Numbered from the stretch's first letter, positions 36,374-56,275 are shown. The stretch: DNA of 64,000 nt from Lachnospiraceae bacterium (GCA_009774585.1 VSOA01000001.1:1610-65609), one strand, 5' to 3'. The notes: generated by a model not told the origin, from the sequence alone. Translations and numbers: made by a program.

Positions 36374-36402
36374 GTAAGCCTGACGATACGGGTCATCAGA
36401 TT

Positions 36403-36441
36403 GTAGACAATCATTTGTTGCGGTGATTGTCTACTTTTTTT
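36403..36441 (+). terminator. Rho-independent terminator after the AraC-type regulator
   Basis: An 11-bp perfect stem, GTAGACAATCA pairing with TGATTGTCTAC, followed by TTTTTTT. Confidence 0.85.
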
Positions 36442-36630
36442 GCCTTTAAATTTCATATGAAATATGCACAAACAAGGAAAGGCAGTTCGTGCTGTGGTCT
36501 GCAGAAAGCCCATAAATACGGGATTTCTTAAATTTTGTATAGTGGCACAAGAAGAATTGTAGAATGACTTTTCGCTGGAAAAATGCTATCGTGAGCGCAA
36601 CGAAACAAAATAAAGCGAAGGAGGTACGAA

Positions 36631-37581: not shown

Positions 37582-37595
37582 GGAGGTAGGGAAGA

Positions 37596-38486
37596 ATGAA
37601 AAACAAGAAGATTACACAGGATAAGGTGGTCTATTTTGTCAATTATATATTACTGACCTTACTTATGATTATCGTATTGTACCCGCTTATCTATGTGGTC
37701 AGTTGTTCCTTCAGTTCCGGGGAAGCGCTGATGGCAGGGCGAGTGAAATTTTTACCGGTAGAACCGACTTTACTCAGTTATAAGACAGTATTCAATTACG
37801 GCGATATTTGGATAGGGTATTTGAATTCTATTATTTATACTCTGATTGGAACCGTCATCAGTATCGTGCTTACGCTTCTTGCGGCATATCCGCTTTCCAG
37901 AAGTGACTTTCGCGGCGGCAATGTGCTGATGAAGCTGTTCTTGTTCACCATGATGTTCAACGGTGGTCTGGTTCCTACTTATTTGCTGGTCCGCAATCTC
38001 GGTCTGATTGATACGATCTGGGCGGTAGTGCTGCCAACGGCGGTAAATGCTTACAATATCATAGTGGCGAGAACTTTCTTCCGCCAGACGATTTCCAAGG
38101 ATTTGCAGGAGGCGGCGGAACTGGACGGCTGTTCCGATTTCATGTTCTTTGTAAAGATTGTCATTCCACTGTCCATGTCCATTATTGCAGTGCTTTGCCT
38201 GTGGGTAGTGATTGCGCTTTGGAACGGATATTTCTATCCGTTGATTTATATCAACTCTCAGGAGAAATATCCACTGCAACTGATTCTTCGAAGAATCCTG
38301 CTGATGTCTCAGGTGGATTTCGGTAATTCCGCAGTGGATCCGAAAGTGGTAATGGAGAACCAGTATTTAAGCCAGATGCTCAGATACGGAACGATTATCA
38401 TAAGTAGTTTACCGCTGCTGCTCATCTATCCTTTTGTGCAGAAACATTTTGTCAAGGGCGTTATGATTGGCTCCGTCAAGGGTTAA
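37596..38486 (+). CDS. Carbohydrate ABC transporter permease (LplC-like)
   Basis: A multi-TM ORF with the EAA loop QEAAELDGCSDFMFFVKIVIP. The ribosome-binding site is AAGGAGG. Confidence 0.85.
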   Translation: MKNKKITQDKVVYFVNYILLTLLMIIVLYPLIYVVSCSFSSGEALMAGRVKFLPVEPTLLSYKTVFNYGDIWIGYLNSIIYTLIGTVISIVLTLLAAYPLSRSDFRGGNVLMKLFLFTMMFNGGLVPTYLLVRNLGLIDTIWAVVLPTAVNAYNIIVARTFFRQTISKDLQEAAELDGCSDFMFFVKIVIPLSMSIIAVLCLWVVIALWNGYFYPLIYINSQEKYPLQLILRRILLMSQVDFGNSAVDPKVVMENQYLSQMLRYGTIIISSLPLLLIYPFVQKHFVKGVMIGSVKG

Positions 38487-38560
38487 GCGGACGTAACTGA
38501 TACTTATGTATAAACCGGGGACCCCGTTGTTTATAAAAATGATTTTAAGGAGGAAAAAAA

Positions 38561-40354
38561 ATGAGAAAGAAAATCTTATTGGGAAAGAAACTGATTTCAT
38601 CCGCAGTCGTACTGGCACTCGGAGTTTCTCTCCTGACAGGCTGTGGCAACACGGCGGGAAGTGCAGGCGCGGGAGAGGGCGCTACAGATGGTGGTGCAGC
38701 GGCAAACGGCGATGCCTTCGCATTCGAATCCGTAAGCGATGTTACCTTTCCACTGAAAGAGAAGCTGACAATTGACGTATTCGTTTACGCATCTCTGACA
38801 GGAGGTGGTACTTATCAGGACAATTATGTAACCGACTGGATTGAGGAGAAGACAAACATTCATTTGAATTTTGTTTACGATGTAGACGGCGATGATGCGA
38901 AGACGAAGCTGAATCTGGTGATGACTGATCCTAAGAATCTGCCGGATTTATTTCTGGCAACCGGTTGGACGAAGACCGAACTTCAGAATTATGGTCAGCA
39001 GGGCTTGATCATTCCCATGAACGACCTGCTGGAAGATGCTCCTAACTGGAATGCAATGAATGAAGAGAGTCCTATGAGAAGGGCAGACCTTACCATGTCC
39101 GATGGTAATATCTATACCTACGGCGACAACAACGAGTGTTTCCATTGCCGCTATCAGAACAGAATGTACATCTATATGCCTTGGGTTGAAGCATTGAACG
39201 ACGGCCATATTCCCGAGACCACGGATGAACTGTATGAGTATCTGAAGAAGGTGAAAACCGAAGATCCTAACGGCAACGGCATTGCCGATGAAGTTCCCAT
39301 GACCGGTTATATTGGCGGTTGGGCTTCCGATCCTACGGTGTGGATGATCAACTCTTTTATACAGTGCAATAATCCCTTGAACAACACCAATCCTACTGTT
39401 GCGGCAGGTCTTGTCGTAAACGATGGCAAAGTGGAGTTTTCCGTGATGAAGGAAGAGTACAGAGATGCGCTTCGCTATATCAACAAGCTGTATTCAGAAG
39501 GACTTTTGGATCCTCAGACCTTTACACAGGATAATACGCAGTTTGCTGCAACGCTGAAGAACGAGGAACATCTGGTGGCTGTTTATCCTGCAGGCGGTCC
39601 TCAGACTGACGATGAATTCTGGGCAAATAAGGACGGCGAGTGGCAGAACTGGGAGGTATTCGCGCCCGTAGAAGGTCCCGGAGGCGTAAGACTTTGTGCA
39701 AAGGGTATTGACAACTATTTCGGTATGGGTATCGGCAGCATTTCTTCTACCTGCGAATATCCTGTCATCGTAACGGCTCTCTTGGACTTCCTTGCAAGTG
39801 CGGAAGCTAACAACGTACAGTCCTTTGGCCCGGAAGGCCTTGGCTGGAGATATACCAGCGAGGGAACGTCACTTGCAGGCGGTACTCCTACGGTTGAGAA
39901 ACTGATTATTCCTGAAGATTATGACTGGCTTGGAAATGGTTACGCAAAGGATTACTCCGGCGAAAACGGCAAGCATTATCGTTGGGCATCTGATGCGTCT
40001 GTAAGGTGGTCTTCTGCAAGAGCGCGTGGCGAGTTGATGATTCCGGATCCGGATCATGATACAGAGTTCTATCTGCAGCAGGCAGGTGAAAAGTATCAGC
40101 CTTACGAACCGGCGATGGAGACTCTGGTTCCAAACCTTGTATTTGAAGGTTCTGACGCACAGCTTATCAGTGAAGCAACCTTGCAGATCGGAGGTTATGT
40201 CAATCAGGCGCTGGTACAGTTTGTCACGGGCGATCTTGATATCGAAGACCAGTGGGAAGAGTATCTTAGCACGTTGGAGAAGATGGGTGTGCAGCAGTAC
40301 ATCGATACCTATCAAAAGTACTATGACGCTTATATGGAAAATGCGGTAAAATAA
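38561..40354 (+). CDS. Large extracellular solute-binding lipoprotein (LplA-like) for oligosaccharides
   Basis: Lipobox LSLLTGCGN. The roughly 600-aa size is typical of LplA-type binding proteins partnered with LplB/C permeases. Confidence 0.8.
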   Translation: MRKKILLGKKLISSAVVLALGVSLLTGCGNTAGSAGAGEGATDGGAAANGDAFAFESVSDVTFPLKEKLTIDVFVYASLTGGGTYQDNYVTDWIEEKTNIHLNFVYDVDGDDAKTKLNLVMTDPKNLPDLFLATGWTKTELQNYGQQGLIIPMNDLLEDAPNWNAMNEESPMRRADLTMSDGNIYTYGDNNECFHCRYQNRMYIYMPWVEALNDGHIPETTDELYEYLKKVKTEDPNGNGIADEVPMTGYIGGWASDPTVWMINSFIQCNNPLNNTNPTVAAGLVVNDGKVEFSVMKEEYRDALRYINKLYSEGLLDPQTFTQDNTQFAATLKNEEHLVAVYPAGGPQTDDEFWANKDGEWQNWEVFAPVEGPGGVRLCAKGIDNYFGMGIGSISSTCEYPVIVTALLDFLASAEANNVQSFGPEGLGWRYTSEGTSLAGGTPTVEKLIIPEDYDWLGNGYAKDYSGENGKHYRWASDASVRWSSARARGELMIPDPDHDTEFYLQQAGEKYQPYEPAMETLVPNLVFEGSDAQLISEATLQIGGYVNQALVQFVTGDLDIEDQWEEYLSTLEKMGVQQYIDTYQKYYDAYMENAVK

Positions 40355-40395
40355 GGAAAGATGCTGCGATAATGAAATAGATAAGTTCGTTCTTT

Positions 40396-40424
40396 CAATG
40401 AGGGTGTCCCCCGGACATCCTCAT
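40396..40424 (+). other. Intercistronic stem-loop (13 bp, no U-tract) between the binding-protein gene and downstream hydrolase genes
   Basis: AATGAGGGTGTCC-ccc-GGACATCCTCATT forms 13 pairs including one G-U. An A-run follows rather than a T-run. Confidence 0.6.
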
Positions 40425-40453
40425 TTAAAAAAAGGAAAGGCAGTGTATTCCCG

Positions 40454-42751
40454 ATGCATGTACAGAAACATTTTATCAGAAAAGAAGCCGGAGCACGCTG
40501 GCTGGACGCAACGCCCATGGGAAACGGATTCATGGGGGCAATGGTCTACGGACATACCACAAAGGATAGAATACAGTTGAATGAGGATTCTTTATGGTAT
40601 GGCAAATTCAGAGACAGAATCAATCCCAATGCGAAAGAGCATTTGAAGGAGATTCAGGAATTGATTCTTGACAGAAGGTTTGAAGAGGCGGAAGAACTGA
40701 TGTTCTCCCACATGGTATCTGTGCCCGGTAATATGAGGAATTTCTCGCCCTTGGGCGAACTTGACCTCGCACTTAATACGGCGCTTCCGTTTCAGATGGG
40801 ATGGCTGCCGGAATCCGACGGTGAGAATTATGTATCTGATTTGAATATGGAAGAAGGCATTCTTCGTATTTCCCATGAAGACAAGGGTGTGCGGTATGTA
40901 AGGGAAATGTTTGTCAGCAATCCCGACAGAGTGCTCTGCATCCGCTTAAAGAGCGATAAGGAGAAGGCAATCCGGCTGGATATGCTGCTCAATCGTGTAC
41001 CTTTCACAGACCAGAGACTGCCCGATGACAGAAGACCGGGGAAATTCGTTAGCGCCGGCGTATGGCCAGTGACCAGATGTGAGAAAATTTATACGGAAAA
41101 CGGACACACGCTGATGATGGAGGGGGATGAAAACGGTACGAAATTCGCCTGCGGGCTGACCGTGGTAACGGATGGACGAATCGAAGACTGTTATGCGAAG
41201 CTGGTTGCCCATGAAGCGAGCGAGGTCGTGATTTATCTGGCAGCTTCTACGGACAACAGAGAAGAAGATTACCTCGGCAGTGTGAAGTCCACGCTTACGG
41301 CGGCGAGAGCCAAAGGATATGATGATAGTAAGGCGGCTCATATTGCGGATTTTACTTCTTATATGAAGAGATGTACGCTGGCGATTCCCGAGGATGAGAA
41401 AGCGGGAATGTATTTCCAGTATGCGAGATATCTGCTCGTATCCGCCGGCAGAGAGGGTTCGACTGCCATGAACCTGCAGGGGATCTGGAATCATGAATTC
41501 TGTCCAAGCTGGGAGAGCAAATATACGACGAATATCAATCTGCAGATGAATTACTGGCCGACAGAAATCTGTAATCTCTCGACGCTCCATGAGCCGCTCT
41601 TTGATCTGATACATACGGTGCAGATGCGGGGGCGCGATGTGGCGAAGAGGATGTATGGATGCAGGGGAACGATGTGTCATCATAATACCGATATCTACGG
41701 TGACTGCGGTACGCAGGATATGTATGCGGCGGCTGCGTTCTGGCAGATTGGCGGCGCATGGATGGCAATGCATCTGTGGGAGCATTATCTTTTTACATTG
41801 GATGAGGAGTTCTTGAGAAAAGAATATCCCGTGATGGAAGAATTTGCACTTTTCTTCGTGGATTACCTGATTAAGGATAAGGAAGGGTATCTGGTGACCT
41901 GTCCTTCCGTATCTCCGGAGAACAGATTCGTTCTGGAAGACGGATCCGATACGCCAATCTGCGCGGGTCCTACTATGGACAATCAGATTATCAGAGCACT
42001 GATGAGAGCCTGTCTGGAAGCGGCGAAGATACTGGGCATCGAAAGCCCTTATAAGGCGGATTTCAAGAGGATCATCAGAGAACTTCGTCCCAATCAGATT
42101 GATTCTACCGGCAGATTGAAGGAATGGGCCTTAGAAGAGAAAGAACTTACTCCGGATATGGTACATACTTCTCATCTGTGGGCGGTATATCCGGGAGATG
42201 AGATTTCATGGAGTAAGGATAAGACAATATATGAAGCGGCAAGAAATTCTTTGGATTCAAGGATCGGGCACGGCGCAAAAGCGACAGGCTGGGGCGGCGC
42301 ATGGCATATCGCATTTTTTGCCAGATTCTTAAACGGCGAGGGCGCGCAGACTGCCATCGAGAGAATGTTTGACAAGAGCCTTACGGAAAGCTTGCTGAAC
42401 GCCGGATATGTATTTCAGATTGACGGGAATCTTGGACTTTTGTCCGGTATGGCGGAATGTCTGCTGCAAAGCCATGTAGGAGTACATTTCCTCCCCGCGC
42501 TTCCGCCCAAGTGGAAGAATGGCAAGGTGAAAGGATTGCGCGCAAGAGGCGGTGTGGAAGTGGATATGGAATGGAAGGACGGATGTATGCAGAAAGCAGA
42601 GGTTCGTGCGGACAAGAGCCGCAGGACGCTGTTTGTGGGCGGCTCTCCTGCGCAGATTATCTGCGGAGGTGAAGAGATTTCATGGGATAAGGAAGAAATC
42701 GGGTATTCTGTGATACTGGAAGCAGGCAAAGCGTATGAATTTGTGTTTTAG
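40454..42751 (+). CDS. GH95 alpha-L-fucosidase/alpha-L-galactosidase (paralog 2); cytoplasmic
   Basis: The motifs WLDATPMGNGFMGAMVYG and YTTNINLQMNYW are present, and the protein is collinear with paralog 1. The SD is weak at the chosen ATG. Confidence 0.8.
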   Translation: MHVQKHFIRKEAGARWLDATPMGNGFMGAMVYGHTTKDRIQLNEDSLWYGKFRDRINPNAKEHLKEIQELILDRRFEEAEELMFSHMVSVPGNMRNFSPLGELDLALNTALPFQMGWLPESDGENYVSDLNMEEGILRISHEDKGVRYVREMFVSNPDRVLCIRLKSDKEKAIRLDMLLNRVPFTDQRLPDDRRPGKFVSAGVWPVTRCEKIYTENGHTLMMEGDENGTKFACGLTVVTDGRIEDCYAKLVAHEASEVVIYLAASTDNREEDYLGSVKSTLTAARAKGYDDSKAAHIADFTSYMKRCTLAIPEDEKAGMYFQYARYLLVSAGREGSTAMNLQGIWNHEFCPSWESKYTTNINLQMNYWPTEICNLSTLHEPLFDLIHTVQMRGRDVAKRMYGCRGTMCHHNTDIYGDCGTQDMYAAAAFWQIGGAWMAMHLWEHYLFTLDEEFLRKEYPVMEEFALFFVDYLIKDKEGYLVTCPSVSPENRFVLEDGSDTPICAGPTMDNQIIRALMRACLEAAKILGIESPYKADFKRIIRELRPNQIDSTGRLKEWALEEKELTPDMVHTSHLWAVYPGDEISWSKDKTIYEAARNSLDSRIGHGAKATGWGGAWHIAFFARFLNGEGAQTAIERMFDKSLTESLLNAGYVFQIDGNLGLLSGMAECLLQSHVGVHFLPALPPKWKNGKVKGLRARGGVEVDMEWKDGCMQKAEVRADKSRRTLFVGGSPAQIICGGEEISWDKEEIGYSVILEAGKAYEFVF

Positions 42752-42774
42752 GCGAAAATAGGAGACGGACAGGT

Positions 42775-45210
42775 ATGGAACAGGGACAGAAAATCTTAAT
42801 CAATCAAGACTGGAAATTTATGCATGGTGATTTTCCGGAGGCGAAAGAACCGGAATATGACGACAGTAAATGGTATGATATCGGAATTCCGCATTCTTTT
42901 GGCATTCCGTACTTCATGGAGAAGCAATTTTATATAGGATACGGATGCTACCGCAAATGGCTGCAGATAGAGGAAGGCTTTGATACGAAGAAGTTGTATC
43001 TGGAATTTCAGGCAAGTTTTCAGGATACGGAAGTGTATGTGAACGGAGAACTTGCAGGCACGCATAAAGGCGGTTATACGGCATTTTTGATAGAGATTAC
43101 TTCATTTGTACACGCCGGAGCCAACTTAGTTTTTGTGCGTGTGAACAATCTGTGGAATGCGAGAATCGCGCCAAGGGGCGGCGAGCATGTCTTCAACGGC
43201 GGTATTTACAGGGACGTGAGTCTGATTGTGAAGGAGAAAGTGCACGTAGCGTGGTATGGTACCCGCGTGACGACGCCGGAGGTGTCCGCAGACAAAGCGC
43301 GTATCGTGGCGGAGACGGAAGTGGAGAATACTTCTGACGTGCAGGCGGACGGCAGATTGGAATCCATTCTTCTCTATCAAGGAGAAGAGGTGGGCAGAAT
43401 GGAGAGTGTGTTTTCCATTGCGCCAGCGAGTATGCCTAAGATGGTGCAGGAGCAGTCTGTTGCCAACCCGAAGCTCTGGCATCCGGATACGCCGAATCTG
43501 TATACTATGGTCAGCAAGGTATATTTGAACGATGAACTTGTGGACACTTGTGAGACGGTATTTGGCATTCGGTATTTTGAGTTTACGGCTGATAAGGGCT
43601 TCTTCTTAAATGGAGCGCATTACGATATTCATGGCGCGAATGTGCATCAGGACCAGGCGGGCTGGTCGGATGCCGTGACGCATACGGCTATTGCGAGAGA
43701 TATCGCTATGGTGAAGGAATGCGGGATGAATTTCATCCGCGGTTCTCATTATCCTCATCATCCGTATTTTGCTAAGGAATGTGACAGACAGGGCCTCCTC
43801 TTCTGGTCGGAGAACTGTTTCTGGGGAACCGGGGGAGCAAAAGAAGAGGGCTACTGGACGGCGAGCGCTTATCCTGTGAACGAGGAAGATGAAGAGGAAT
43901 TTGAAGCAAGCTGTATGCAGACGCTTAGGGAGATGATTCTGGTGAACCGTAATCATCCCAGTATCATTGTGTGGAGTATGTGCAACGAGCCGTTTTTCTC
44001 ATCTCTGGAGGTACTCGACAAGGCGCGGGCGCTTGTTAGAAAATTAGTAGAGTACAGTCACGAACTGGATGATTCCCGACCGGCAGCGGTGGGCGGTGCG
44101 CAGAGAGGCGGTTTCGATGCTCTAGGTGATATTGCGGGATACAATGGAGACGGCGCATCTATCTTCCACAATCCCGGGTTCCCGAATTTTGTATCCGAGT
44201 ACGGAAGCAGTGTGCTGGACCGCCCGGGTGAGTTTATTCACCGATACAGAGACGGTGTGGAAGAGGATTATCCGTGGAGAAGCGGCAAGTGCTTATGGTG
44301 CGCATTCCACCACGGCAGTATCCTCGGCAATATGGGACATATGGGGATGATTGACTATTACAGACTGCCTTTGGATACATGGTATTGGTATCGCGAGAAT
44401 CTGGCAGGCGTTCCGCGTCCGGAGATACCGAAGGCTGGGGAACCTCATAGAATCCGTCTGACGGCGAGCAGTCTTACCATGAAATGTGACGGTACGGAGG
44501 ATGTGAAGATTACGGCGGAAGTGCTGAATGAAGAGGGCGAGAGAATTGACTGTAATCCGCAGATAGAACTTACGGTCGTTTCCGGTCCCGGCAGATTTCC
44601 GACCGGCAGGATATTTACGTTGTCGTCAGAGAAGGAGAATCTGATTCAGGGGGCTGGCGCTATTACGCTTCGCGCTTATGACGGCGGTGAGACGATAGTG
44701 CGCGCAGTCTGCGAAGGCGTGCATGGCGATGAAATTAGGATTCAGGTAATCGGCGAGGAAGCGCAGGAAGGATGCGCGCGTGTAGAACTTCTGCCTCCGC
44801 CCTATGTGTGTGATGAACCCAAGCGCAAGAAGCTTGACAATATTGCCATCAACCGCCCTGTATTCTGCACGAGTGCATTGGAAGCGCATCCGGCGCGGAA
44901 TGTGACGAACGGTGATATGACGATGTATTGGCGCCCGGCAGAAGAGGATACGGAGCGCATGGTATTGGTGGATCTGGAAGGTACGAAGGAGATTCAAAGC
45001 GTGACGGTTGTCTTTGCGGAAGTGACGAATGCAGAGTATGAGATTCTGTTAACGGATGACCGGAAGACATATCGCAGCGTCTATACCTCGGAGAAGCTTA
45101 ATATTGATAATTATCTGACGGTTCGTCTGCCGGGGGAGAAGACGAGATATGTCTGCGTGAGATTTCCTAAGAAAGCTGTTGGCGTGTATAAGGTGGAAGT
45201 GTTTGCTTAA
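42775..45210 (+). CDS. GH2-family glycoside hydrolase (beta-galactosidase-like) with a C-terminal F5/8-type-C (discoidin) domain
   Basis: The GH2 N-terminal sugar-binding pattern is INQDWKF...GGYTAF. The TIM-barrel motifs are NFIRGSHYPH and WSMCNEP. No signal peptide is present. Confidence 0.8.
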   Translation: MEQGQKILINQDWKFMHGDFPEAKEPEYDDSKWYDIGIPHSFGIPYFMEKQFYIGYGCYRKWLQIEEGFDTKKLYLEFQASFQDTEVYVNGELAGTHKGGYTAFLIEITSFVHAGANLVFVRVNNLWNARIAPRGGEHVFNGGIYRDVSLIVKEKVHVAWYGTRVTTPEVSADKARIVAETEVENTSDVQADGRLESILLYQGEEVGRMESVFSIAPASMPKMVQEQSVANPKLWHPDTPNLYTMVSKVYLNDELVDTCETVFGIRYFEFTADKGFFLNGAHYDIHGANVHQDQAGWSDAVTHTAIARDIAMVKECGMNFIRGSHYPHHPYFAKECDRQGLLFWSENCFWGTGGAKEEGYWTASAYPVNEEDEEEFEASCMQTLREMILVNRNHPSIIVWSMCNEPFFSSLEVLDKARALVRKLVEYSHELDDSRPAAVGGAQRGGFDALGDIAGYNGDGASIFHNPGFPNFVSEYGSSVLDRPGEFIHRYRDGVEEDYPWRSGKCLWCAFHHGSILGNMGHMGMIDYYRLPLDTWYWYRENLAGVPRPEIPKAGEPHRIRLTASSLTMKCDGTEDVKITAEVLNEEGERIDCNPQIELTVVSGPGRFPTGRIFTLSSEKENLIQGAGAITLRAYDGGETIVRAVCEGVHGDEIRIQVIGEEAQEGCARVELLPPPYVCDEPKRKKLDNIAINRPVFCTSALEAHPARNVTNGDMTMYWRPAEEDTERMVLVDLEGTKEIQSVTVVFAEVTNAEYEILLTDDRKTYRSVYTSEKLNIDNYLTVRLPGEKTRYVCVRFPKKAVGVYKVEVFA

Positions 45211-45225
45211 GAGGAGGAAAAGGAA

Positions 45226-47637
45226 ATGTTGGATGTGATATCCCCCAAATGCAGGTTGATTACAAAGGTTTACAGGGAAGGAAACGGCCTATACCTGACG
45301 GCGGAGGCAGGACTTCTAAGATTGCTGCCTGAGAAGGAGGGCATTGTGCGGGTCTCTTTTACGGACAAGGAAAATTTCACTGAAGGTCAGGGCAGGCATA
45401 TCAAAGATCTGTCAGAGATGAGATTTGCAGATGAGGGAGAGGATGCCTGCAGTCTTGAAGGGGTGTGGAACTACAAAGAGACAGAGAATGAGATTTGCCT
45501 GTATACGAAAGCGCTCAGTGTAAATGTAAACCGCAGGAGCGGCTCGATACGTTTCTGCAAGGCGGATGGCAGCATATTGCTTGCGGAAGCAGATCAAGAG
45601 AGCAGGACGCTTGAGGAGTTTGACTGCTATCGCACGGTAATCAATGAAAATACAAGAGTAGAAGAGGTGCAGACTCCGGATGGTGTCAAGCGTCTGATCA
45701 AAGAGGCGGACAAGGAGTTTGCCGGCAAACTTTATCATACTACGCTGCATCTTAAGTTTGCAGACGGAGAAAAACTGTACGGACTGGGACAGGCGGAGGA
45801 AGGAGTGTGGAATCTGCGCGGCACCACCCAGTATCTTCATCAGGCGAATTTGAAAATTGCCGTACCGGTACTGCTCTCAAGTAAGGGATGGGGTATTATG
45901 CTGTCTACCCAGAGTCCTGCCGTATTTCAGGATACGGCTTACGGTTCTTATCTGCATACGGAAGCGGATGAATATCTGGATTATTATTTCCTGACGGGGG
46001 AGACACTAAAGTGCGTGGTTAAAGGCATTCGGGAACTTACCGGCAGGGCGGTGATGCTGCCGAAATGGGCTTTCGGATATATTCAGTCCCAAGAGCGGTA
46101 TGAGACAGCGAAAGAACTGATAGATACGGCGCAGGAATTCCGTGACCGGAAGCTGGGGCTCGATTGTCTGGTGCTTGATTGGATGAGCTGGCAAGGTAAT
46201 CTCTGGGGACAGAAGACTTTGGATGAGACGAGATTTCCCAATCCTCATGAGATGATAGAGAAACTGCATGAAAAGCAGGTACACTTTATGATCTCTATCT
46301 GGCCCAATATGACTACAATAAGCGATAACTATCAGGAATTTTCCAAGAAGGGCTGCCTGCTTCCTGCAAGTGAAGTGTATGACGCCTTTCGTGAAGAAGG
46401 AAGAAAGTTATACTGGGAACAGACTGAAAGAGGGCTTTTCGCACATGGCGTAGATGCATGGTGGTGTGATTCCAGCGAACCGATTACCCCGGAATGGGGC
46501 AGAAGTCATAAGCCGGAACCGGGAGAGGCGTATCGGGATTTCGTGGAAAATGCCGCAAATTGTATGCCGATCGAGCAGGCCAATGCGTATGGTCTTTACC
46601 ATGCGAAAGCTATATATGATGGACAAAGAGGCAGCACCGATGCGAAGAGAGTGACGAATCTGACGCGAAACGGGTATCTGGGCAGTCAGAAATACGGTAC
46701 AATTCTCTGGTCCGGAGATACCTATGCAAGCTGGGAGACTCTGAAAAAGCAGATTGTGGCAGGACTGCAGTTCACCGTAACCGGACTGCCTTACTGGACG
46801 CTTGATATAGGTGCATTCTTCGTAAAGAACGGAACGCCTTGGTTCTGGAAGGGTGAGTATGAGAAGGGCAATGAGGATTTGGGTTATAGAGAATTGTATA
46901 CAAGGTGGTTCCAGTATGGCGCATTTCTGCCAATATTCAGAAGCCACGGAACGGATTGTCGTAGGGAGCCGTGGCATTTTGGCAAAGCGGGCGAGCTTTT
47001 CTATGAGGCGATTGCGGCGGCAATCCGCTTGAGATACCGTCTGCTTCCGTACCTGTATTCTCTGGCGGGAGCAGTATGGAGAGAGCATGACACCATCATG
47101 CGGCCGCTTGTATTTGATTTTCCGTCAGATGAGAAAGCGTGCGGGATATCCGATGAGTATATGGTAGGACCGTCTCTTCTTGTGTGTCCTGTGACAACGC
47201 CCATGTACTATCTGGCAGACAGTGTGCCGGTGGACAATGCATCCTACACCAGACAAGTGTATCTGCCGGCAGGAAGTGATTGGTATGACCTTCGCACGAA
47301 TGAAAAATATGCGGGCGGACAAGAGATTGCCGCGACAGCGGATATTGCGGGGATTCCCGTATATGCGCGCGCGGGTGCAGTTGTGCCTATGATGGAACCG
47401 GGCGTAAGTACGCAGGATATGGAAGGGAAGGATATCTGCCTGAAAGTATATCCCGGTGCGGACGGCGCGTTCACATTGTATGAGGATGCCGGAGACGGCT
47501 ACGGGTATGAGAACGGAGAGTATTGTCTCACTCATATCACCTACAGTGAGAACGACGGCAAGGTATCTATGGTATCGGAAGGTGATACCGTATGGCGTAA
47601 GGGCGAACTGAAGGTGGAGATTGTCTCTGCTTCATGA
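45226..47637 (+). CDS. GH31-family glycoside hydrolase (alpha-xylosidase/alpha-glucosidase)
   Basis: The GH31 motifs KWAFGYIQSQERY, DAWWCDSSEP (nucleophile region) and WSGDTYASW are present. No signal peptide is present. The xylosidase specificity is inferred from genomic context. Confidence 0.8.
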   Translation: MLDVISPKCRLITKVYREGNGLYLTAEAGLLRLLPEKEGIVRVSFTDKENFTEGQGRHIKDLSEMRFADEGEDACSLEGVWNYKETENEICLYTKALSVNVNRRSGSIRFCKADGSILLAEADQESRTLEEFDCYRTVINENTRVEEVQTPDGVKRLIKEADKEFAGKLYHTTLHLKFADGEKLYGLGQAEEGVWNLRGTTQYLHQANLKIAVPVLLSSKGWGIMLSTQSPAVFQDTAYGSYLHTEADEYLDYYFLTGETLKCVVKGIRELTGRAVMLPKWAFGYIQSQERYETAKELIDTAQEFRDRKLGLDCLVLDWMSWQGNLWGQKTLDETRFPNPHEMIEKLHEKQVHFMISIWPNMTTISDNYQEFSKKGCLLPASEVYDAFREEGRKLYWEQTERGLFAHGVDAWWCDSSEPITPEWGRSHKPEPGEAYRDFVENAANCMPIEQANAYGLYHAKAIYDGQRGSTDAKRVTNLTRNGYLGSQKYGTILWSGDTYASWETLKKQIVAGLQFTVTGLPYWTLDIGAFFVKNGTPWFWKGEYEKGNEDLGYRELYTRWFQYGAFLPIFRSHGTDCRREPWHFGKAGELFYEAIAAAIRLRYRLLPYLYSLAGAVWREHDTIMRPLVFDFPSDEKACGISDEYMVGPSLLVCPVTTPMYYLADSVPVDNASYTRQVYLPAGSDWYDLRTNEKYAGGQEIAATADIAGIPVYARAGAVVPMMEPGVSTQDMEGKDICLKVYPGADGAFTLYEDAGDGYGYENGEYCLTHITYSENDGKVSMVSEGDTVWRKGELKVEIVSAS

Positions 47638-47684
47638 GCGGTCAGGTCAAGAAACACGCAACGATAAGTGAAGGATTAAGATTT

Positions 47685-49277
47685 ATGAGAGAGAACACCA
47701 CAAAATGGATTGTGGCAATTGGGATCATAGTGTTTATACTTTTGGGGGCAGGAATTTTGCAGGGAACTGATGCAGGGTTTCGGTCCCTATTTCCCAAGGG
47801 ATCTGCCGGGGAGCAAAATACTGTCGGGATAAGCGTAGAATTTTTTTATTTCAATGGTTGCGAGACCTGCAGGGAATATCAGAAGTTTGAACAGGAATTT
47901 GAACAGAGGCTGCGGGATGCAGGTATTACGGAGCCGATTACCTGTACCTTCTATAATGCATTCCACGAATCCGAGCGGGAGTATATAAGTAAACGTATGG
48001 AAGAATTGGGTGTTCCTTACGATATGTCAGGACTTCCGGCGGCTTTGGTGAACGGCAGATTATATCAGGGAACTTATGGCGAAATCGGTGATAAGGCGTC
48101 CGCAGATATTCCGGAGGACGGTATAAGGGAGAGGTCTGCTGGAGAAGGACAAGAAAGAACGATGTCAGGAAATGAAACGACGGATACCGAACTCTTCCTC
48201 TTTACGACTTATGCTTGTGACAACTGTAGCAAAGTCAAAGAATATCTTAACGAAGAATTCGGAGACGGTGCAGCCATCAGTGTAGTATCAGGTGAAGAAA
48301 GCATCTTATCCAATGTTTATGTGACAGAGCTCAATATTATGGAAGAGGGGAATCTTGCCCTGCTTGATACCTTCATGGAAGAATACGCAGTGCCGGATGA
48401 TCTGCGACAAGTGCCGATTTTGTTCTATGCGGAAGGTTTTTTGTCCGGAGAGGAGAATATTAAAGAGAATCTCATGGAAGAATTGTGCGACGGAGCCGGA
48501 CTTGGATTTGCAAGAGACAAGCGGGAAAGTCCGGACGCGGTTGAAACGGGGATGGAACAAGGGTGGTCTCAGATTCCAAGGCTTTTCATGACAGGTCTTA
48601 TAAATGGCGTCAATCCTTGTGCAGCATCCATGCTCCTGATGGTGCTGTCAATCCTTTTGGTGACGAAGAAATTTTTCCTGCGGGGGAGTCTCTTGTATTT
48701 GGCCGGCAAAGTGACGGCTTATATGATGATGGGACTGGGAGCGTTTGGATTGTTCCAAGTGGTGCAGGAAGCTGTATTTGTGCGAGTACAAAGGGGTATC
48801 GAGACTGTCTTTGCAGCAGCAGCTCTTGGTTTATGCCTGCTTAATCTGTATGATTTCTGGAATACGCGGAAGAAACAGTACGGTAAAGTCGTAGTACAGC
48901 TTCCCGGGAAACTGCGCAAGTGGAATCACAATATGATCGAGAAGCTGAAAAACGTATCGCCGAAACGGATGCTCCCTGCAGTGTTCCTGCTGGGACTGGT
49001 GATTTCGGCGGGAGAATTCTTCTGCACGGGGCAGTTGTATGTGGCTTCTATTTTTATCCTGTTAAAGCAGGGGCAGCAGGAGTTTCTGACGGTTGCAATG
49101 TTGCTGCTTGTATATGTGCTTGCTATGTGCATTCCGCAGTTGGTATTGATTTTGGTGATTTATAGAAGTAAGAATTTGCTGTCTGCGTCCAGATTTGCAC
49201 TGGAGGGGATGCCTGTGGTGAAATTAATCTATGCGGGCGTATTTCTTGCGTTATTTTTCCTTCTGCTGTATGCGTAA
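47685..49277 (+). CDS. Membrane protein fusing two extracytoplasmic CxxC thioredoxin/glutaredoxin-like modules to a DsbD/CcdA-type transmembrane domain
   Basis: An N-terminal TM is present. The CxxC motifs are CETC (FYFNGCETCREY) and CDNC (TTYACDNCSKV). The C-terminal polytopic domain carries the NGVNPCAAS and EFFCTGQLY cysteine motifs. An alternative in-frame ATG at 47634 overlaps the GH31 stop as ATGA. Confidence 0.7.
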   Translation: MRENTTKWIVAIGIIVFILLGAGILQGTDAGFRSLFPKGSAGEQNTVGISVEFFYFNGCETCREYQKFEQEFEQRLRDAGITEPITCTFYNAFHESEREYISKRMEELGVPYDMSGLPAALVNGRLYQGTYGEIGDKASADIPEDGIRERSAGEGQERTMSGNETTDTELFLFTTYACDNCSKVKEYLNEEFGDGAAISVVSGEESILSNVYVTELNIMEEGNLALLDTFMEEYAVPDDLRQVPILFYAEGFLSGEENIKENLMEELCDGAGLGFARDKRESPDAVETGMEQGWSQIPRLFMTGLINGVNPCAASMLLMVLSILLVTKKFFLRGSLLYLAGKVTAYMMMGLGAFGLFQVVQEAVFVRVQRGIETVFAAAALGLCLLNLYDFWNTRKKQYGKVVVQLPGKLRKWNHNMIEKLKNVSPKRMLPAVFLLGLVISAGEFFCTGQLYVASIFILLKQGQQEFLTVAMLLLVYVLAMCIPQLVLILVIYRSKNLLSASRFALEGMPVVKLIYAGVFLALFFLLLYA

Positions 49278-49349: not shown

Positions 49350-49745
49350 TTATTTATAATAGAAAGCCGCGTGGGTGATTTCTATTCCCATATATTCAGA
49401 AAGTAAAGAGAGCCATTCCGGGGGCATATCGCCCTGCAAAGCGGGAATGGCTTCTTCCAATTCTGCAAGGAGCCGTACACGGACAGCGTCCCTGTGGATA
49501 AAGCAGGGATTGGCATCATCGAAGAACTCGATGCTCTTTGCGATGATCAGTTCTTCTGCAAGAGGCAGATCGTTCCAAGGTCCCTGATAGAGTTCAGTAT
49601 GATCTGCGGATAATGTGACGTATATTTTTTTCTTGTGTCCAAACATGAGAAGGTCCTTTCGTGCTGTATTGAGGATTGCCGGGAAGCGGGTCGGGGCCGC
49701 CGTTTCATGATTTATCAATCCTTCAAGCGACAGCCCCTTTGACAT
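49350..49745 (-). CDS. Small hypothetical protein (98-131 aa)
   Basis: This ORF is the last gene of the minus-strand operon. The internal Met at 49646 has the better ribosome-binding site (GAAAGGA plus 7 nt). No motif was recognised. Confidence 0.5.
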   Translation of the reverse strand: MSKGLSLEGLINHETAAPTRFPAILNTARKDLLMFGHKKKIYVTLSADHTELYQGPWNDLPLAEELIIAKSIEFFDDANPCFIHRDAVRVRLLAELEEAIPALQGDMPPEWLSLLSEYMGIEITHAAFYYK

Positions 49746-49769
49746 AACTTATATCATTGTCCTTTTACG

Positions 49770-50210
49770 TTACGGACAAACAACGCCCTTTTGCAGCATG
49801 ATATTGGCATACAGCGCTTCTTCTCCGGTGGCGATGACAGCATAAGCGCTGCGCGCCTCCTCATAAAACGCAAAACGTTCTATTTCCCCGATGACTGCAG
49901 CGCCTCTTTCATCGGCGGCATTTACAATCTTTCGGTATTCATCCCAGATGGGCGTCTTAACCGGGTCGCCTTTCATCACCTGCATCAGATTGAAAGGTTT
50001 CTCCACATAAGTATCCAGCGGAAATAATTGTAGAATGGCTTCCAGTATCTCACAAGTTCCATGGCCGTCCATCCGTATTACAACAGCATCCTTGCCGATA
50101 CTCTCGGCAGGAAAGTTACCGTCTGCGATGACGAGTCTGTCGCTGTGTCCCATTTCGCAAAGCACTTTCAGAAGCTGTGGTGATAATATTTTCGGAATTC
50201 CTTTCAGCAT
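49770..50210 (-). CDS. fucU: L-fucose mutarotase (RbsD/FucU family)
   Basis: The N-terminus is characteristic (MLKGIPKILSPQLLKVLCEMGHSDRLVIADGNFP). The length, about 146 aa, fits the family. Confidence 0.85.
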   Translation of the reverse strand: MLKGIPKILSPQLLKVLCEMGHSDRLVIADGNFPAESIGKDAVVIRMDGHGTCEILEAILQLFPLDTYVEKPFNLMQVMKGDPVKTPIWDEYRKIVNAADERGAAVIGEIERFAFYEEARSAYAVIATGEEALYANIMLQKGVVCP

Positions 50211-50262
50211 AAATGCGCTCCTTTTCTACTTAATAATGTTTTGTTTCTACGATCCCAATTTG

Positions 50263-51285
50263 TCATTCGGTAATCTGTCCATCTACATCCCAGAGATCTT
50301 CCCAGCTTGTGGCGCCTTCCCACAAAAAGACTTGTCCTTTTACCAGACGGCAGTTCTTGTCATCTTGCCGGATAGCTTCCATCTCTGTATCCGTGAGCGG
50401 ATCACAGGCTGCGCACTGCAGATTGGAAATATACTGCGGCTCTTTCACCGAAAAAGGAATCGGAATCTGACCTCTCTGCACCGCCCATTTCAGACAGACG
50501 ACTGCCGGATGTACCTGATGCGCCTTAGCGGCTGCTGCCACGGAAGGCAGTTGTGTATCGACCACATCTTCCTCCATCCGGTCTCTCTCAGGACGGGAAG
50601 GGGAACCAATCGGACAATAGCCGATGGGCAGGATATTGTGTGCGACCGCATAATCAAACAGTTCCGGCTGCTGGAAGGATGGATGCAGCTCCATTTCAAG
50701 GGCGGCAGGCATGATTCTGCATAGGGGCAGTACTGCTTCCAGCTTAGGGATGGTCATATTGCTCATGCCGATATACCGTGCAAGTCCCATGTCCACAAGC
50801 GCTTCGCACTGTCTCCAAACCGACATAAATTCCTCTGTCGAAAAAGGCTTGGAATCCGGATTTCTGGAATCTCCGCTGCATCCCGGTGCATGATAATTTG
50901 GGAAGGGCCAATGTACAAAATAAAGGTCAATCTGCGAAAGCCCTAAATCATGTAAGCTTTCTTTGCAGGAAGCGATGACTTCACCTTCTCCGTGCCTGTC
51001 ATTCCATACCTTGGAAGTGATGAAAAGCTCTTTGCGCGTTACTACGCCTTCTGCAAACACTCTATGAAGAACCTGTCCGATCTGCGCTTCGTTCTGATAC
51101 ACCGAAGCACAATCGATCAGACGGTATCCGTATTTGATTGCGCCATACACCGCTTCCGAAACCGCATCTGCCCCATATTTGTCCGAGCCAAAGGTTCCCA
51201 GCCCCATACAGGGAATCTGCTCTCCGCCGGGCAAGGTTCTCTTTGGAATCAGGGACTGTTCTATTTTCTGTTCCATATGTCTCAC
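50263..51285 (-). CDS. Aldo/keto reductase (candidate L-fucose/L-galactose 1-dehydrogenase)
   Basis: The AKR catalytic tetrad context is present: LIDCASVYQNE (Asp and Tyr), ITSKVWN (Lys) and YFVHWP (His). The GTG start lies 5 nt after GAGAGGA. The substrate is inferred from context only. Confidence 0.8.
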   Translation of the reverse strand: MRHMEQKIEQSLIPKRTLPGGEQIPCMGLGTFGSDKYGADAVSEAVYGAIKYGYRLIDCASVYQNEAQIGQVLHRVFAEGVVTRKELFITSKVWNDRHGEGEVIASCKESLHDLGLSQIDLYFVHWPFPNYHAPGCSGDSRNPDSKPFSTEEFMSVWRQCEALVDMGLARYIGMSNMTIPKLEAVLPLCRIMPAALEMELHPSFQQPELFDYAVAHNILPIGYCPIGSPSRPERDRMEEDVVDTQLPSVAAAAKAHQVHPAVVCLKWAVQRGQIPIPFSVKEPQYISNLQCAACDPLTDTEMEAIRQDDKNCRLVKGQVFLWEGATSWEDLWDVDGQITE

Positions 51286-51297
51286 CTATGTCCTCTC

Positions 51298-52356
51298 TTA
51301 ATCAAATACCACGGCGACCTTACCGCACTGACCGCCTGCCATAAGCTGATAAGCTTCCCCGGCTTTCTCCAAGGGGAATTCATGCGTGATCAGGTCCTCC
51401 GGATGAATGTTCCAGCGTACCAGCCGCTCAACCAGTTCTTCCATCCGCCAGAGCGATGTGACCCATGAACCATATATGGTCTTCTGTCCGTGAATGATAT
51501 CCGGACTGGGATTAAAGCTGCAGGTGCCGCCTTCTCCGACAAATGCGATTTTACCCCATTCCCGGGTGGCACGGATGGCGAGCTGGCGGCCGCCGTCGTT
51601 GGCCGATGCGTCGATGGCGCGCTCCACTCCCTTGCCGCCTGTGGCTGAGAGGATTTCATCCAAAGCGCCGTCTCCCGGTTTAACCACCAGATCTACCAGT
51701 CCCAGTTTCCTTGCAAGCGCGATTCTGTAATCGTTGATCTCCACACCGATCAGTTTATTGGCGCCTAAAGCTTTGGCAAGCATGAGCGCGGCAAGTCCGA
51801 CTGGTCCGAGACCGGTCACCAGTACCGCATCGTTACCGCAGATACCGATTTTCTCGATGGCTTCATAGACTGTTCCGAATCCGCATGCTACTTGAGCGCC
51901 GTCTTTATAGGACAGTTCGTCGGGCAGAGCAATCAGATCCTTTTCATCCGCCAGAATGTAAGGAGCCATACCGCCGTTTCTCTGCCAGCCGTAAGCCTGC
52001 CGGAACCTGCTCTTACAGGAAATATAATATCCCCGGCGGCAGTCATTGCATACGCCGCATCCCGAAATATGATAGACGATCACTCTGTCTCCCTTCTTGA
52101 AACGCTTTAATCCCTCGCCCTCTTCCACGATCTGGCCGCAGGGTTCATGTCCGGCTGCCATGCCCGGGATATACCCCTCCGGTCCTTTACCTGTATGTTC
52201 TCTGTAGATACAGCGGATATCGCTGCCACAGATTGTGGTTGCCTTTGTCTGTATCACAACTTGTCCATAGCCCGGTTTCGGTATTTCAAAGTCCTTCAAT
52301 TCTACCGTGCTGTTTCCGGGCAGCACGGCTCCTTTCATTAACATTTTTACTGCCAT
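51298..52356 (-). CDS. Zn-dependent medium-chain dehydrogenase/reductase (sugar or sugar-acid dehydrogenase type)
   Basis: Catalytic Zn ligands are present (ICGSD, GHEPCG). The structural Zn motif is CGVCNDCRRGYYISC. The Rossmann motif is VTGLGPVGL. The ribosome-binding site is AAAGGAG. Confidence 0.85.
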   Translation of the reverse strand: MAVKMLMKGAVLPGNSTVELKDFEIPKPGYGQVVIQTKATTICGSDIRCIYREHTGKGPEGYIPGMAAGHEPCGQIVEEGEGLKRFKKGDRVIVYHISGCGVCNDCRRGYYISCKSRFRQAYGWQRNGGMAPYILADEKDLIALPDELSYKDGAQVACGFGTVYEAIEKIGICGNDAVLVTGLGPVGLAALMLAKALGANKLIGVEINDYRIALARKLGLVDLVVKPGDGALDEILSATGGKGVERAIDASANDGGRQLAIRATREWGKIAFVGEGGTCSFNPSPDIIHGQKTIYGSWVTSLWRMEELVERLVRWNIHPEDLITHEFPLEKAGEAYQLMAGGQCGKVAVVFD

Positions 52357-52491
52357 AGTAATTTCTCCTTTCCGAAAGTATTTCGTTTCGCTGCTGCTTT
52401 GTAACTGATTTCAGTATACTCTTTTCTATTCCCGATACCAGATTGGAACATGCCGATTTTTGCTGAAAAGTGTCGTGTTTTTATAGGATAT

Positions 52492-52520
52492 TTTGCAGGA
52501 GGATGGAATATTTGTTATAC
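52492..52520 (+). promoter_or_regulatory. Putative sigma-A promoter of the AraC-family regulator in the divergent intergenic region
   Basis: TTGCAG, a 17-nt spacer, then TATACT. A minus-strand TATACT at 52418-52413 with a poor -35 is a candidate activator-dependent promoter for the dehydrogenase operon. Confidence 0.4.
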
Positions 52521-52568
52521 TATACAAAGAAGCATAAATATTCGCATCAAATATCCAAAGGAGAAACT

Positions 52569-53456
52569 GTGAAGAAACAATATACCGACTTAGATATCCA
52601 TTTTACTTTGGATGGATTTCCCGTACACGTTCTTAACATCATATTTGAGCGCTTTACCCGCGTCATTCCTTCCCACAGCCATGGAAACGGCTGTTATGAG
52701 ATCCACTATATTCCGGCGGGCTTCGGCAGGTTAAAAGAAGGTGAAACTTATTACGATATTACCCCCAACACACTCTTTGTGACAGGGCCTCATGTGGTGC
52801 ATGCACAGTCGCCGCTCCTGTCCGATCCAATGCAGGAATACTGTGTTTATTTCAGGTTTCCCGGAGTATCCCGTACGAAGGAACTGTCATCGCTCCTGAA
52901 CGCCTTCTTATCTACCGGCTTCTGGATCGGACAGGATGTGCAGGGAGTCCATTTTCTGATGAAACAGCTTTTTGATGAGCTGGAATGTCAGTATACCGGT
53001 TATCAGAATCAGGTGCAGCTTTTGCTTTCACAGCTTATCATTTGTCTTGTGCGGAATTATGAACAGGAAAAGAAGCCGGAATACCGTTTTGCACGGTCCA
53101 ATCTCTATAACAGCAAATCTATGATCATAGAAGAATATTTCCTCTATGAATACAGAACGCTTTCTTTAGATGTACTTGCCGATCGGCTCAAGCTGAGCTC
53201 CCGACAGACCCAGCGCCTTTTACAGGATTATTATGGCAAGACTTTTCAGCAGAAGAAAACGGAAGCGCGTATGTCTACTGCGTCCATCATCCTTAATGAC
53301 AGAAGCAGAAGCATCGCCTCCATTGCAGAGGAGCTTGGTTATTCCTCTGCGGAGCACTTTTCTTCTGCTTTTAAGAAATATTATCATATCAGCCCCGGAA
53401 ACTATCGAAAGGAACAGGGAGGAAGAGATTGCTTTTCAGATGGGGAAGAAGTATAA
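52569..53456 (+). CDS. AraC-family transcriptional regulator (cupin sensor plus HTH)
   Basis: The GTG at 52569 follows AAAGGAGA. The cupin-like region reads SHSHGNGCYEIHYIP. The C-terminal AraC HTH reads IAEELGYSSAEHFSSAFKKYYHISPGNYR. Confidence 0.85.
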   Translation: MKKQYTDLDIHFTLDGFPVHVLNIIFERFTRVIPSHSHGNGCYEIHYIPAGFGRLKEGETYYDITPNTLFVTGPHVVHAQSPLLSDPMQEYCVYFRFPGVSRTKELSSLLNAFLSTGFWIGQDVQGVHFLMKQLFDELECQYTGYQNQVQLLLSQLIICLVRNYEQEKKPEYRFARSNLYNSKSMIIEEYFLYEYRTLSLDVLADRLKLSSRQTQRLLQDYYGKTFQQKKTEARMSTASIILNDRSRSIASIAEELGYSSAEHFSSAFKKYYHISPGNYRKEQGGRDCFSDGEEV

Positions 53457-54574: not shown

Positions 54575-56275
54575 ATGATGAGAGACAAAAGAGAGCAAAA
54601 GAGTGGGAAAAAGGGCAAAAGAGTGAGTGGCAGAAGCAAAAGAGCGATGATGCCGGTGGCTATGGCAGTGCTTGCGGCGCTGTTAACAGTATGCGGAGTA
54701 CTTTTTGGGGGCGGCACATTGAGCGTGGAGGCAGCAGGACGTCCCGTTTCAATCAGTTCTTGCACCATTGCAGGAGCAGACGTAGTGTGTCAGCTTAGTG
54801 CAGGCAGCGTTCCTTCGAGTGATGACGGTAAATATTATGTTTATGCGAACGAAGTTTATCAGGACGGACCGGTCGGTAAGGTGGCGGCGGTAGTCGATGC
54901 AGGGACTTCTGTTACGGCAAGTTTTCCGCTCGGATATAATACGGCAGACTCTAACTTGAGCCGCAAGTTTCTTATTGCCGTGAAACGCGGCGGGCAGATG
55001 GTTCAGGTCAGCGATGAGCATTATATTACGAATCCTGAGGCAATCGCTTCCCATACATCCGCACGCAGACCGGCTGGAATCAAAGGCATTCTACCGGATC
55101 TTACGAAGGCTTCCAAGGAGGAATTGCAGGATCTGGGTGTTTCGCAGGTGGTATACAATATGTATGTTGACGATATTTGTGTCGATGCGACGGTACCCGG
55201 AGCGATTCCTTTTGAATATAACGGACAGACCTGGTATTTCAATAACGGAATGGTGACCAAGTTCGATTCTATGATCAGGAGTTTTAACGCATATGGTATG
55301 CAGGTGACGATGGTGCTGTTAAACGGCGGCAGAAGCCAGTACACGCAGCATCTGGTTCATCCGATGGCGCAGGGCGGAGACTGTCCGGGCTACGCTTTGA
55401 ATGTTGCGGATGCGGCGGGAACCGAACACTTGAAAGCAATCGGAGCATTCTTGGGACAGCGCTATTCGGGTCAGGCAGGATGCGGGCAGGTGGACAATTG
55501 GATCATTGGCAACGAGGTAAATGCAAGAACCTCATGGTGGTATACCAGTTCTACATCGTTGGATTTCAATGTGAATGTTTATGTAAAGGCATTCCGGATT
55601 ATGTATAACGAGATGAAGAGCCAGAATGCCAACGTTCGTATCTATAATTCCATCGATCAGGAATGGAACAGAAAATCGAACCCCGGAAGTTTCTTGGCTA
55701 AGGAATATCTGGATCAGTTTAACTATTATATCAATAGAGAAGGAAATATAGACTGGGGGCTTTCCTATCATCCGTACAATTCTCCGCTATATGATCCGTA
55801 TGCTTGGAACGGTCCGGCGGTATGGGTGCAGAACAGTATTTCAACGCCTTATATCACGATGCAGAATATTGATATATTGATCAATTATATGCATCAGCCT
55901 CAGTTCTTAAGCCCGGGCGGCGATGTGAGAAGCATTTCTCTTGCAGAAATCGGATATACGTCCAGTTTTGGTGACGACAAACAGGAAGCATCGGTAGCTT
56001 ACGGTTATCTGAAGGCGGCTTCCCTGCCTGATGTTGATGCATTTATGCTGTTTCGACAGACTGATGATGCGCATGAGATGGAGAGTCATCTGGCGCTTGG
56101 ATTATATGATCTGAACGGTAACAAGAAACCGGCTTACCATATTTATAAGAGTCTGGGAACAGCCAACGAGGCGGCAGCAAAAGCGAGAGCGTCTGAGATT
56201 ATCGGCATGGATATCGACCAGATGATCAGCCAGAATATCATGTGGACGAGAAGCGGCAACGGAGTGGTGCAATAA
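54575..56275 (+). CDS. Secreted protein of unknown function with a clan GH-A-like (TIM-barrel glycosidase-like) core
   Basis: A basic N-terminus is followed by a signal or anchor segment (MMPVAMAVLAALLTVCGVLF). The motif DNWIIGNEVNA resembles the GH-A acid/base NE motif, and a later AEIGYTS may be a nucleophile-like Glu. The family was not recognised. Confidence 0.6.
   Translation: MMRDKREQKSGKKGKRVSGRSKRAMMPVAMAVLAALLTVCGVLFGGGTLSVEAAGRPVSISSCTIAGADVVCQLSAGSVPSSDDGKYYVYANEVYQDGPVGKVAAVVDAGTSVTASFPLGYNTADSNLSRKFLIAVKRGGQMVQVSDEHYITNPEAIASHTSARRPAGIKGILPDLTKASKEELQDLGVSQVVYNMYVDDICVDATVPGAIPFEYNGQTWYFNNGMVTKFDSMIRSFNAYGMQVTMVLLNGGRSQYTQHLVHPMAQGGDCPGYALNVADAAGTEHLKAIGAFLGQRYSGQAGCGQVDNWIIGNEVNARTSWWYTSSTSLDFNVNVYVKAFRIMYNEMKSQNANVRIYNSIDQEWNRKSNPGSFLAKEYLDQFNYYINREGNIDWGLSYHPYNSPLYDPYAWNGPAVWVQNSISTPYITMQNIDILINYMHQPQFLSPGGDVRSISLAEIGYTSSFGDDKQEASVAYGYLKAASLPDVDAFMLFRQTDDAHEMESHLALGLYDLNGNKKPAYHIYKSLGTANEAAAKARASEIIGMDIDQMISQNIMWTRSGNGVVQ

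Follow-up and report, generated by a model that had tools for sequence, protein, structure and literature searches.

A widely shared AraC-MDR-AKR-FucU cassette of gut Clostridia and its possible role as an alditol shunt for L-galactose- or L-fucose-type sugars

Introduction

In the oxidoreductive routes of fungi, xylose reductase acts together with xylitol dehydrogenase, and L-arabinose passes through meso-xylitol. For L-galactose, an oxidative pathway was reportedly described in P. vulgatus by Hobbs in 2014 (Bvu0219/0220/0222). A further oxidative L-galactose cluster, lguABCDE of Luteolibacter, holds altronate dehydratase, tagaturonate reductase, and 2-keto-3-deoxy-6-phosphogluconate aldolase together (PMC12632266). 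Here we describe a different cassette, found in a 64,000-nucleotide stretch of DNA (VSOA01000001.1:1610-65609; hereafter the window) from a Lachnospiraceae bacterium (GCA_009774585.1). It consists of genes for a Zn-dependent medium-chain dehydrogenase/reductase (MDR), an aldo-keto reductase (AKR), and a FucU-family mutarotase, with a divergently transcribed AraC-type regulator. This AraC-MDR-AKR-FucU module is widely shared and uncharacterized, and a literature search found no paper on it. From its sequence we propose, with roughly even confidence, that the cassette could form an AraC-controlled and redox-neutral shunt from aldose through alditol to ketose, with L-galactose as the favored substrate.

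The cassette resembles the fungal routes in pairing an aldose-reductase-type AKR with an NAD+-dependent Zn-MDR polyol dehydrogenase, and it would likewise use a meso alditol for passage from the L- to the D-series. It differs in being bacterial, in its L-fucose/L-galactose-type sugar, in its AraC control and FucU, and in that both enzymes look NAD(H)-linked and would thus avoid a cofactor imbalance. With the oxidative L-galactose pathways of P. vulgatus, E. coli (LgoD), and Luteolibacter, the cassette shares the sugar family and two consecutive nicotinamide-dependent oxidoreductases, but its MDR is not an LgoD orthologue, and lactonase, altronate, and tagaturonate genes do not occur in cis. 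The E. coli fucPIKUR/fucAO regulon also has a FucU (44% identity to that of the window) and sugar-responsive control, and in other genomes the cassette is often found beside FucI. However, FucI, FucK, FucA, and FucO are absent from the window locus, and the only FucO-like match in the genome is weak (28% identity). In uncharacterized tagatose-type operons, the AKR clade is sister to that of the window and, at most loci, FucU is again the partner. Genes for a kinase, an alditol-phosphate dehydrogenase, and an aldolase belong to these operons, whereas the window has a different MDR (26–29% identity) and neither a kinase nor an aldolase gene in cis.

Results

Organization of the cassette

The window corresponds to contig C1 of a fragmented genome, in 471 contigs and 92% complete (the source genome). 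The cassette occupies the following positions.

51298–52356, minus strand: Zn-dependent MDR dehydrogenase, first gene of the operon (ADH_N and ADH_zinc_N)
50263–51285, minus strand: AKR of the aldose-reductase type (PF00248, E 4e-48, residues 26–307)
49770–50210, minus strand: FucU-family L-fucose-type mutarotase (PF05025, E 5e-45)
52470–53456, plus strand: AraC/XylS regulator, read divergently to the operon and carrying a sugar-binding cupin domain (AraC_binding and HTH_18)
52357–52568, no strand assigned: intergenic control region of the divergent MDR and AraC genes (sequence reading)

The initial annotation of this locus, made from the sequence, had described a four-gene operon on the minus strand. 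Three of its members, the MDR, the AKR with its intact D-Y-K-H tetrad, and FucU, are real genes with matching domains, separated by 12 nt (MDR to AKR) and 52 nt (AKR to FucU). The fourth, a small open reading frame (ORF), does not belong to the operon, as described below. The AKR may begin at an ATG three codons downstream of its called start. FucU scores 124.5 bits against the L-fucose mutarotase equivalog model (cut-off 141) and 39.6 bits against the ribose pyranase/RbsD model. The divergent regulator was confirmed as well and has an N-terminal cupin domain (PF02311) and a C-terminal double helix-turn-helix (PF12833 and PF00165). Its start is likely the GTG at 52569 rather than the codon at 52470, judging from an AAAGGAG located 5 nt before it. 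A promoter scan of the control region gave only weak sigma-70-like matches and defined no operator, and a terminator scan found no convincing candidate 3' of FucU or 3' of the small ORF.

Recurrence of the cassette

Species-representative genomes were scanned with the AKR, and the best 80 loci of 591 confirmed relatives (AKR identity 67–90%) were taken as the locus set. At most loci with flanking DNA, an MDR of the same type (72–97% identity) adjoins or lies near the AKR; across the cassette loci the AKR is the less conserved of the two. In 55 of the 80 loci an AraC homologue (39–81% identity), usually divergent, is nearby, and FucU follows the AKR in about half. Co-occurrence of these four genes is far beyond chance. 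The commonest neighbor, found immediately 3' of the cassette in 21 loci, is an alpha-L-fucosidase of glycoside hydrolase family 29 (GH29); GH95 is nearby in 10 and FucI (L-fucose isomerase) in five. At one locus FucI comes directly after FucU, and in another, very abundant locus type it lies beside the cassette under a separate, second AraC. The presence of FucU in the cassette, along with the frequencies of GH29, GH95, and FucI around it, ties the cassette solidly to L-fucose/L-galactose-type sugars and bears out this part of the initial annotation. Other recurrent neighbors are CUT2 sugar ATP-binding cassette (ABC) transporters, GH31, and GH20.

The cassette is carried by gut Clostridia of mouse, chicken, rabbit, ruminants, and humans; cultured carriers include Blautia celeris NSJ-34, Eisenbergiella porci, and Lachnospiraceae bacterium 28-4. 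Gut metagenomes contain thousands of nearly identical relatives of its MDR, every one under a generic name. Background frequencies in the family were taken from one genome per genus in 120 Lachnospiraceae genera. Six of these genera have a close MDR orthologue, which a same-genus relative lacks. At one locus (L125, 7395–8915) a large serine recombinase stands directly upstream of the cassette in place of AraC, which suggests horizontal mobility. Based on the low number of genera, the same-genus gap, and the adjoining recombinase, the cassette looks patchy and is probably a mobile accessory module. A large serine recombinase also occurs upstream of the cassette at a second locus, ~1 kb from the AKR (L081, 5307–6962).

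Two variations in gene content were seen. In Marvinbryantia (L053 and L056, 9468–11668), AKR-FucU is followed by proteins of 479 and 254 amino acids that take the position of the MDR, with GH95 next; these two proteins have no NCBIfam match and may stand in for the dehydrogenase step. Elsewhere a divergent GH36/melibiase-like enzyme, ~700 amino acids at full length, directly flanks FucU (L075, 4325–6418; L068, L072, and L080). Some copies are cut by contig ends, and one, in Butyrivibrio sp. INlla16, is located among xylan genes. This enzyme is possibly a further source of released L-galactose or L-fucose.

The dehydrogenase and the reductase

The catalytic residues of the MDR (C43, H70, and E71), its structural Cys4 site (C100, C103, C106, and C114), the GxGxxG motif, and E206 are kept in at least 50 of 51 orthologues, with the catalytic Cys-His-Glu and the Cys4 invariant in all 51. 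The closest relatives in NCBIfam and the PDB are Tdh, IolM, and sorbitol dehydrogenase, and xylitol dehydrogenase is also among the PDB relatives. NCBIfam scores are far below equivalog level (bits/cut-off: Tdh 159/458, IolM 148/450, GatD 103/550), and no equivalog-level match to Tdh, IolM, GatD, or IdnD was reached. A paralogue family at 50% identity lies near CUT2 ABC transporter genes, and the one paralogue locus annotated in detail also has ROK, SDR, and IdnD-like genes, which make up a polyol-type set. Both the Tdh/sorbitol dehydrogenase/IolM placement and this paralogue context were counted in favor of an alditol substrate, and the MDR is predicted to be an NAD+-linked alditol (secondary-alcohol) dehydrogenase. 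It is the sole Zn-MDR match at E≤1e-10 in the source genome.

The AKR, likewise the sole match of its family at E≤1e-10 in the source genome, has a tetrad (D58, Y63, K92, and H125) that is invariant in 67 orthologues. Among solved structures, the closest to it belong to aldose and aldehyde reductases from plants and animals, in the AKR4C, AKR1A, and AKR1B groups (E 1e-54 to 1e-45). The top 60 PDB matches are all named as reductases or generic AKRs, none as an aldose 1-dehydrogenase. In an alignment to AKR4 structures, at the IPKS...R motif, the clamp for the 2'-phosphate of NADPH is missing: the Lys is replaced by F278 (invariant) and the Arg by Q284 (63 of 67 orthologues). The altered clamp bears on cofactor choice and does not remove the enzyme from the AKR superfamily. 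This replacement, together with the acidic E206 that follows GxGxxG in the MDR, indicates from what is known of AKR and MDR structures that both enzymes prefer NAD(H). Reduction and re-oxidation could therefore form a cofactor-neutral pair. The AKR is predicted to be an NAD(H)-linked reductase of L-galactose/L-fucose-type aldoses.

The AKR tree adds a functional context. The clade of the window AKR has a sister clade in other Clostridia (SH-aLRT 99, 67–68% identity), whose operons (L082–L087 and L090) encode LacI, an FGGY kinase, a GatD-like galactitol-1-phosphate dehydrogenase, PfkB, GatY, GatZ, and the AKR. FucU is present in most of these operons, and GH29 at one locus. As judged by its families, this gene set is that of a route from galactitol through tagatose-6-phosphate to triose. 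Such a set requires galactitol as the product of the sister-clade AKR, and the presence of FucU makes L-galactose its natural precursor.

Proposed pathway

In the pathway that we propose, GH95 and GH29 enzymes would release L-fucose-configured aldoses inside the cell, and FucU would equilibrate their anomers. Next, the AKR would use NADH to turn the aldose into the corresponding alditol, which would be galactitol if the sugar is L-galactose and L-fucitol if it is L-fucose. Finally, the NAD+-dependent Zn-MDR would form a ketose by re-oxidizing a secondary carbon of the alditol, making the two steps together redox-neutral. The favored product is D-tagatose from meso-galactitol, a conversion that would bring the L-sugar into the D-series; the alternative is L-fuculose from L-fucitol. 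We favor the reductive direction because the AKR is aldose-reductase-like, its sister clade lies in galactitol/tagatose operons, and the sites of both enzymes are of the NAD(H) type. Sugar reduction, which the initial annotation had put second, thus fits better than oxidation.

The choice of sugar and product is less firm. GH29 as the commonest neighbor favors L-fucose. L-Galactose is preferred as the substrate because, where FucI is present, the cassette would only duplicate its formation of L-fuculose; the loci with FucI directly after FucU or beside the cassette likewise speak for a sugar other than the L-fucose that FucI handles. It is possible, though we hold this only tentatively, that the cassette represents an undescribed bacterial path for L-galactose that runs alongside FucI, in which the NADH-linked reductase gives meso-galactitol and the Zn-MDR oxidizes its other end to D-tagatose or D-galactose. 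Since no single downstream route fits every carrier, the MDR step is left with several candidate products: D-tagatose, L-fuculose, and even D-galactose.

Neighboring genes

The features surrounding the cassette are as follows.

49350–49745, minus strand: small conserved ORF outside the cassette (probably 98 amino acids, 49350–49646)
30106–49277, plus strand: cytoplasmic oligosaccharide locus, given as context (Pfam assignments)
31684–33915, plus strand: GH95 gene (Pfam)
40454–42751, plus strand: GH95 gene (Pfam)

The small ORF, 131 amino acids as called, has no copy at any of the 80 cassette loci. Its homologues are 94–102 amino acids long and every one begins at the position of M34, so that the true start is probably M34 at 49646, where a good Shine-Dalgarno sequence is found. 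In the contexts that were read, the homologues are the terminal genes of GH95/ABC loci and in most cases converge on a gene for a DsbD_2-like membrane protein of 540–565 amino acids. The window has the same convergent pairing, with a membrane-protein gene (547 amino acids) at 47634–49277 on the plus strand. The small ORF is therefore a neighbor that belongs with the adjacent glycan locus and not a member of the operon. The suggestion that it might encode the missing enzyme of the sugar route is ruled out by its absence from the cassette loci and by its synteny with the glycan locus. Its family has the motif KSIEFF.DP.PCFIHRSAV..RLLAELE. The AlphaFold2 model of the ORF has a mean confidence score (pLDDT) of 86, and a fold search with it gave no PDB match.

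The plus-strand locus holds GH43, GH95, a 786-amino acid AraC-type regulator, two ABC permeases, a binding protein (DUF3502-type), a second GH95, GH2, GH31, and the 547-amino acid membrane protein. It is the likely source of L-fucose or L-galactose. The two GH95 proteins are 38% identical to each other, and their genes are not next to the operon, as had been claimed, but lie 7–18 kb off in this separate locus. Xyloglucan has side chains in which fucose or L-galactose is linked to galactose and xylose. The GH95, GH2, and GH31 set would fit fucosyl- or L-galactosyl-xyloglucan oligosaccharides, which is compatible with L-galactose but not decisive. The same can be said of the Butyrivibrio cassette locus, which sits among xylan genes. 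At the His419/Thr370 specificity site of GH95, both window enzymes and nine of the 10 GH95 enzymes that neighbor the cassette elsewhere have Thr, as does the L-galactosidase BACOVA_03438, whereas AfcA has His. As a marker of specificity this site is no more than suggestive.

Other observations concern the source genome. It has one GH29 fucosidase gene, split over the ends of contigs C186 and C12, and the two GH95 genes, yet FucI, FucK, and FucA were not found. On contig C452 (L003, 3218–6923) a xylulokinase gene adjoins that of a 494-amino acid Fucose_iso_C-family protein, a candidate alternative pentose isomerase. Within 11307–16192 and 54575–56275 of the window, both on the plus strand, are genes for the large proteins DUF5717 (1187 amino acids), DUF5716 (437 amino acids), and DUF5722 (566 amino acids).

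Discussion

Several other explanations were weighed against the alditol shunt. In an oxidative route, which the initial annotation preferred, the AKR would oxidize L-galactose or L-fucose to a lactone or acid, and the MDR would convert L-galactonate to D-tagaturonate for the uronate pathway, like LgoD or Bvu0222. The enzyme classes agree with this at the superfamily level, both enzymes look NAD-linked, a mutarotase suits a single-anomer dehydrogenase, and oxidative L-galactose routes have precedents in P. vulgatus, in Luteolibacter (PMC12632266), and, starting from L-galactonate, in E. coli. Carrier genomes, counted as 12 including the source genome, have the altronate dehydratase UxaA in seven cases. 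However, UxaA was not found in the source genome (92% complete) or in four of the 11 other carriers, one of which is 100% complete. The MDR matches E. coli LgoD at 28% identity and 92 bits, below its score to Tdh structures and no better than a generic MDR, which rules out orthology. No lactonase, altronate dehydratase, tagaturonate reductase, or uronate gene recurs at the 80 loci, and the position of the sister AKR clade in galactitol/tagatose operons is incompatible with an aldonate product. We consider oxidation of this kind unlikely. A closer relative of our proposal is a bypass of L-fucose isomerase, in which the AKR and MDR take L-fucose through L-fucitol to L-fuculose by the same chemistry. 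GH29 is the commonest neighbor, and the cassette occurs in genomes in which FucI was not found (the source genome, Butyrivibrio sp. INlla16, and G091). A bypass would nevertheless be redundant where FucI co-occurs, as it does in eight of the 12 carriers compared with 42 of the 120 genera, or adjoins FucU or the cassette. Moreover, no FucK-like kinase to use the L-fuculose was found in the source genome or in G091, and we regard the bypass as improbable.

DkgA/DkgB-type AKRs and Zn-dependent alcohol dehydrogenases reduce small aldehydes, and one or both cassette enzymes might form 1,2-propanediol by reduction of L-lactaldehyde, methylglyoxal, or acetol in deoxy-sugar fermentation, for detoxification or as an end product. 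Such a product would need no downstream genes, and the association with FucI is mildly positive. But no FucI/FucK/FucA or rhamnulokinase route to lactaldehyde was found in the source genome, tandem oxidoreductases would not be needed, and the cassette includes both a mutarotase for sugars and a sugar-sensing AraC regulator of the cupin type, which together make this role very unlikely. The least credible alternative, with little to commend it, is that another aldose is used, either D-xylose by enzymes like xylose reductase and xylitol dehydrogenase or D-arabinose, through a pentitol to D-xylulose and then XylB. In the source genome XylB and numerous xylosidases are present but no canonical XylA was found, and the PDB relatives of the MDR include xylitol and sorbitol dehydrogenases. 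XylA, however, is rare throughout the family (10 of 120 genera and one of 11 carriers), so that its absence gives no signal and replacement of XylA is not supported; the cassette neighbors are fucosidases, FucU, and FucI rather than xylose genes.

The alditol shunt itself must be set against a number of observations that weigh against it. AKRs of this branch can also act as aldose 1-dehydrogenases, yeast Ara1 being an example. At 26–29% identity, the window MDR and the GatD-like MDR of the tagatose-type operons are not orthologues. The AKRs of those operons form a sister clade and are not nested in the window clade, so that a shift in specificity may have occurred between the two. The GH95 Thr/His site is not diagnostic, as 7kmq and 8zbv, the latter deposited as a fucosidase, also have Thr. 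Carriers have no consistent downstream route (GatZ in one of 12, LacD in none of 11, FucI in eight of 12, and UxaA in seven of 12), no kinase acting after the MDR was identified, and the GatZ match of Lachnospiraceae bacterium 28-4 lies outside any tagatose-type operon. The source genome, at 92% completeness, lacks FucI, a FucK-like kinase, FucA, GatZ, and LacD, and it shares with a 100%-complete carrier the absence of FucI, a FucK-like kinase, UxaA, and GatZ.

If the reductive assignment is true, the cassette would correct the default annotations of its enzymes as 'threonine dehydrogenase-like' and '2,5-diketogluconate reductase', and it would offer NAD(H)-linked enzymes for rare-sugar synthesis. 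It would be a bacterial counterpart of the fungal reductase/polyol dehydrogenase pathways and would fill a gap in how Firmicutes handle L-galactose and L-fucose from plant and host glycans. If L-galactose is indeed the substrate, gut Clostridia could use the L-galactose of cereal xylans, xyloglucan, and rhamnogalacturonan-II.

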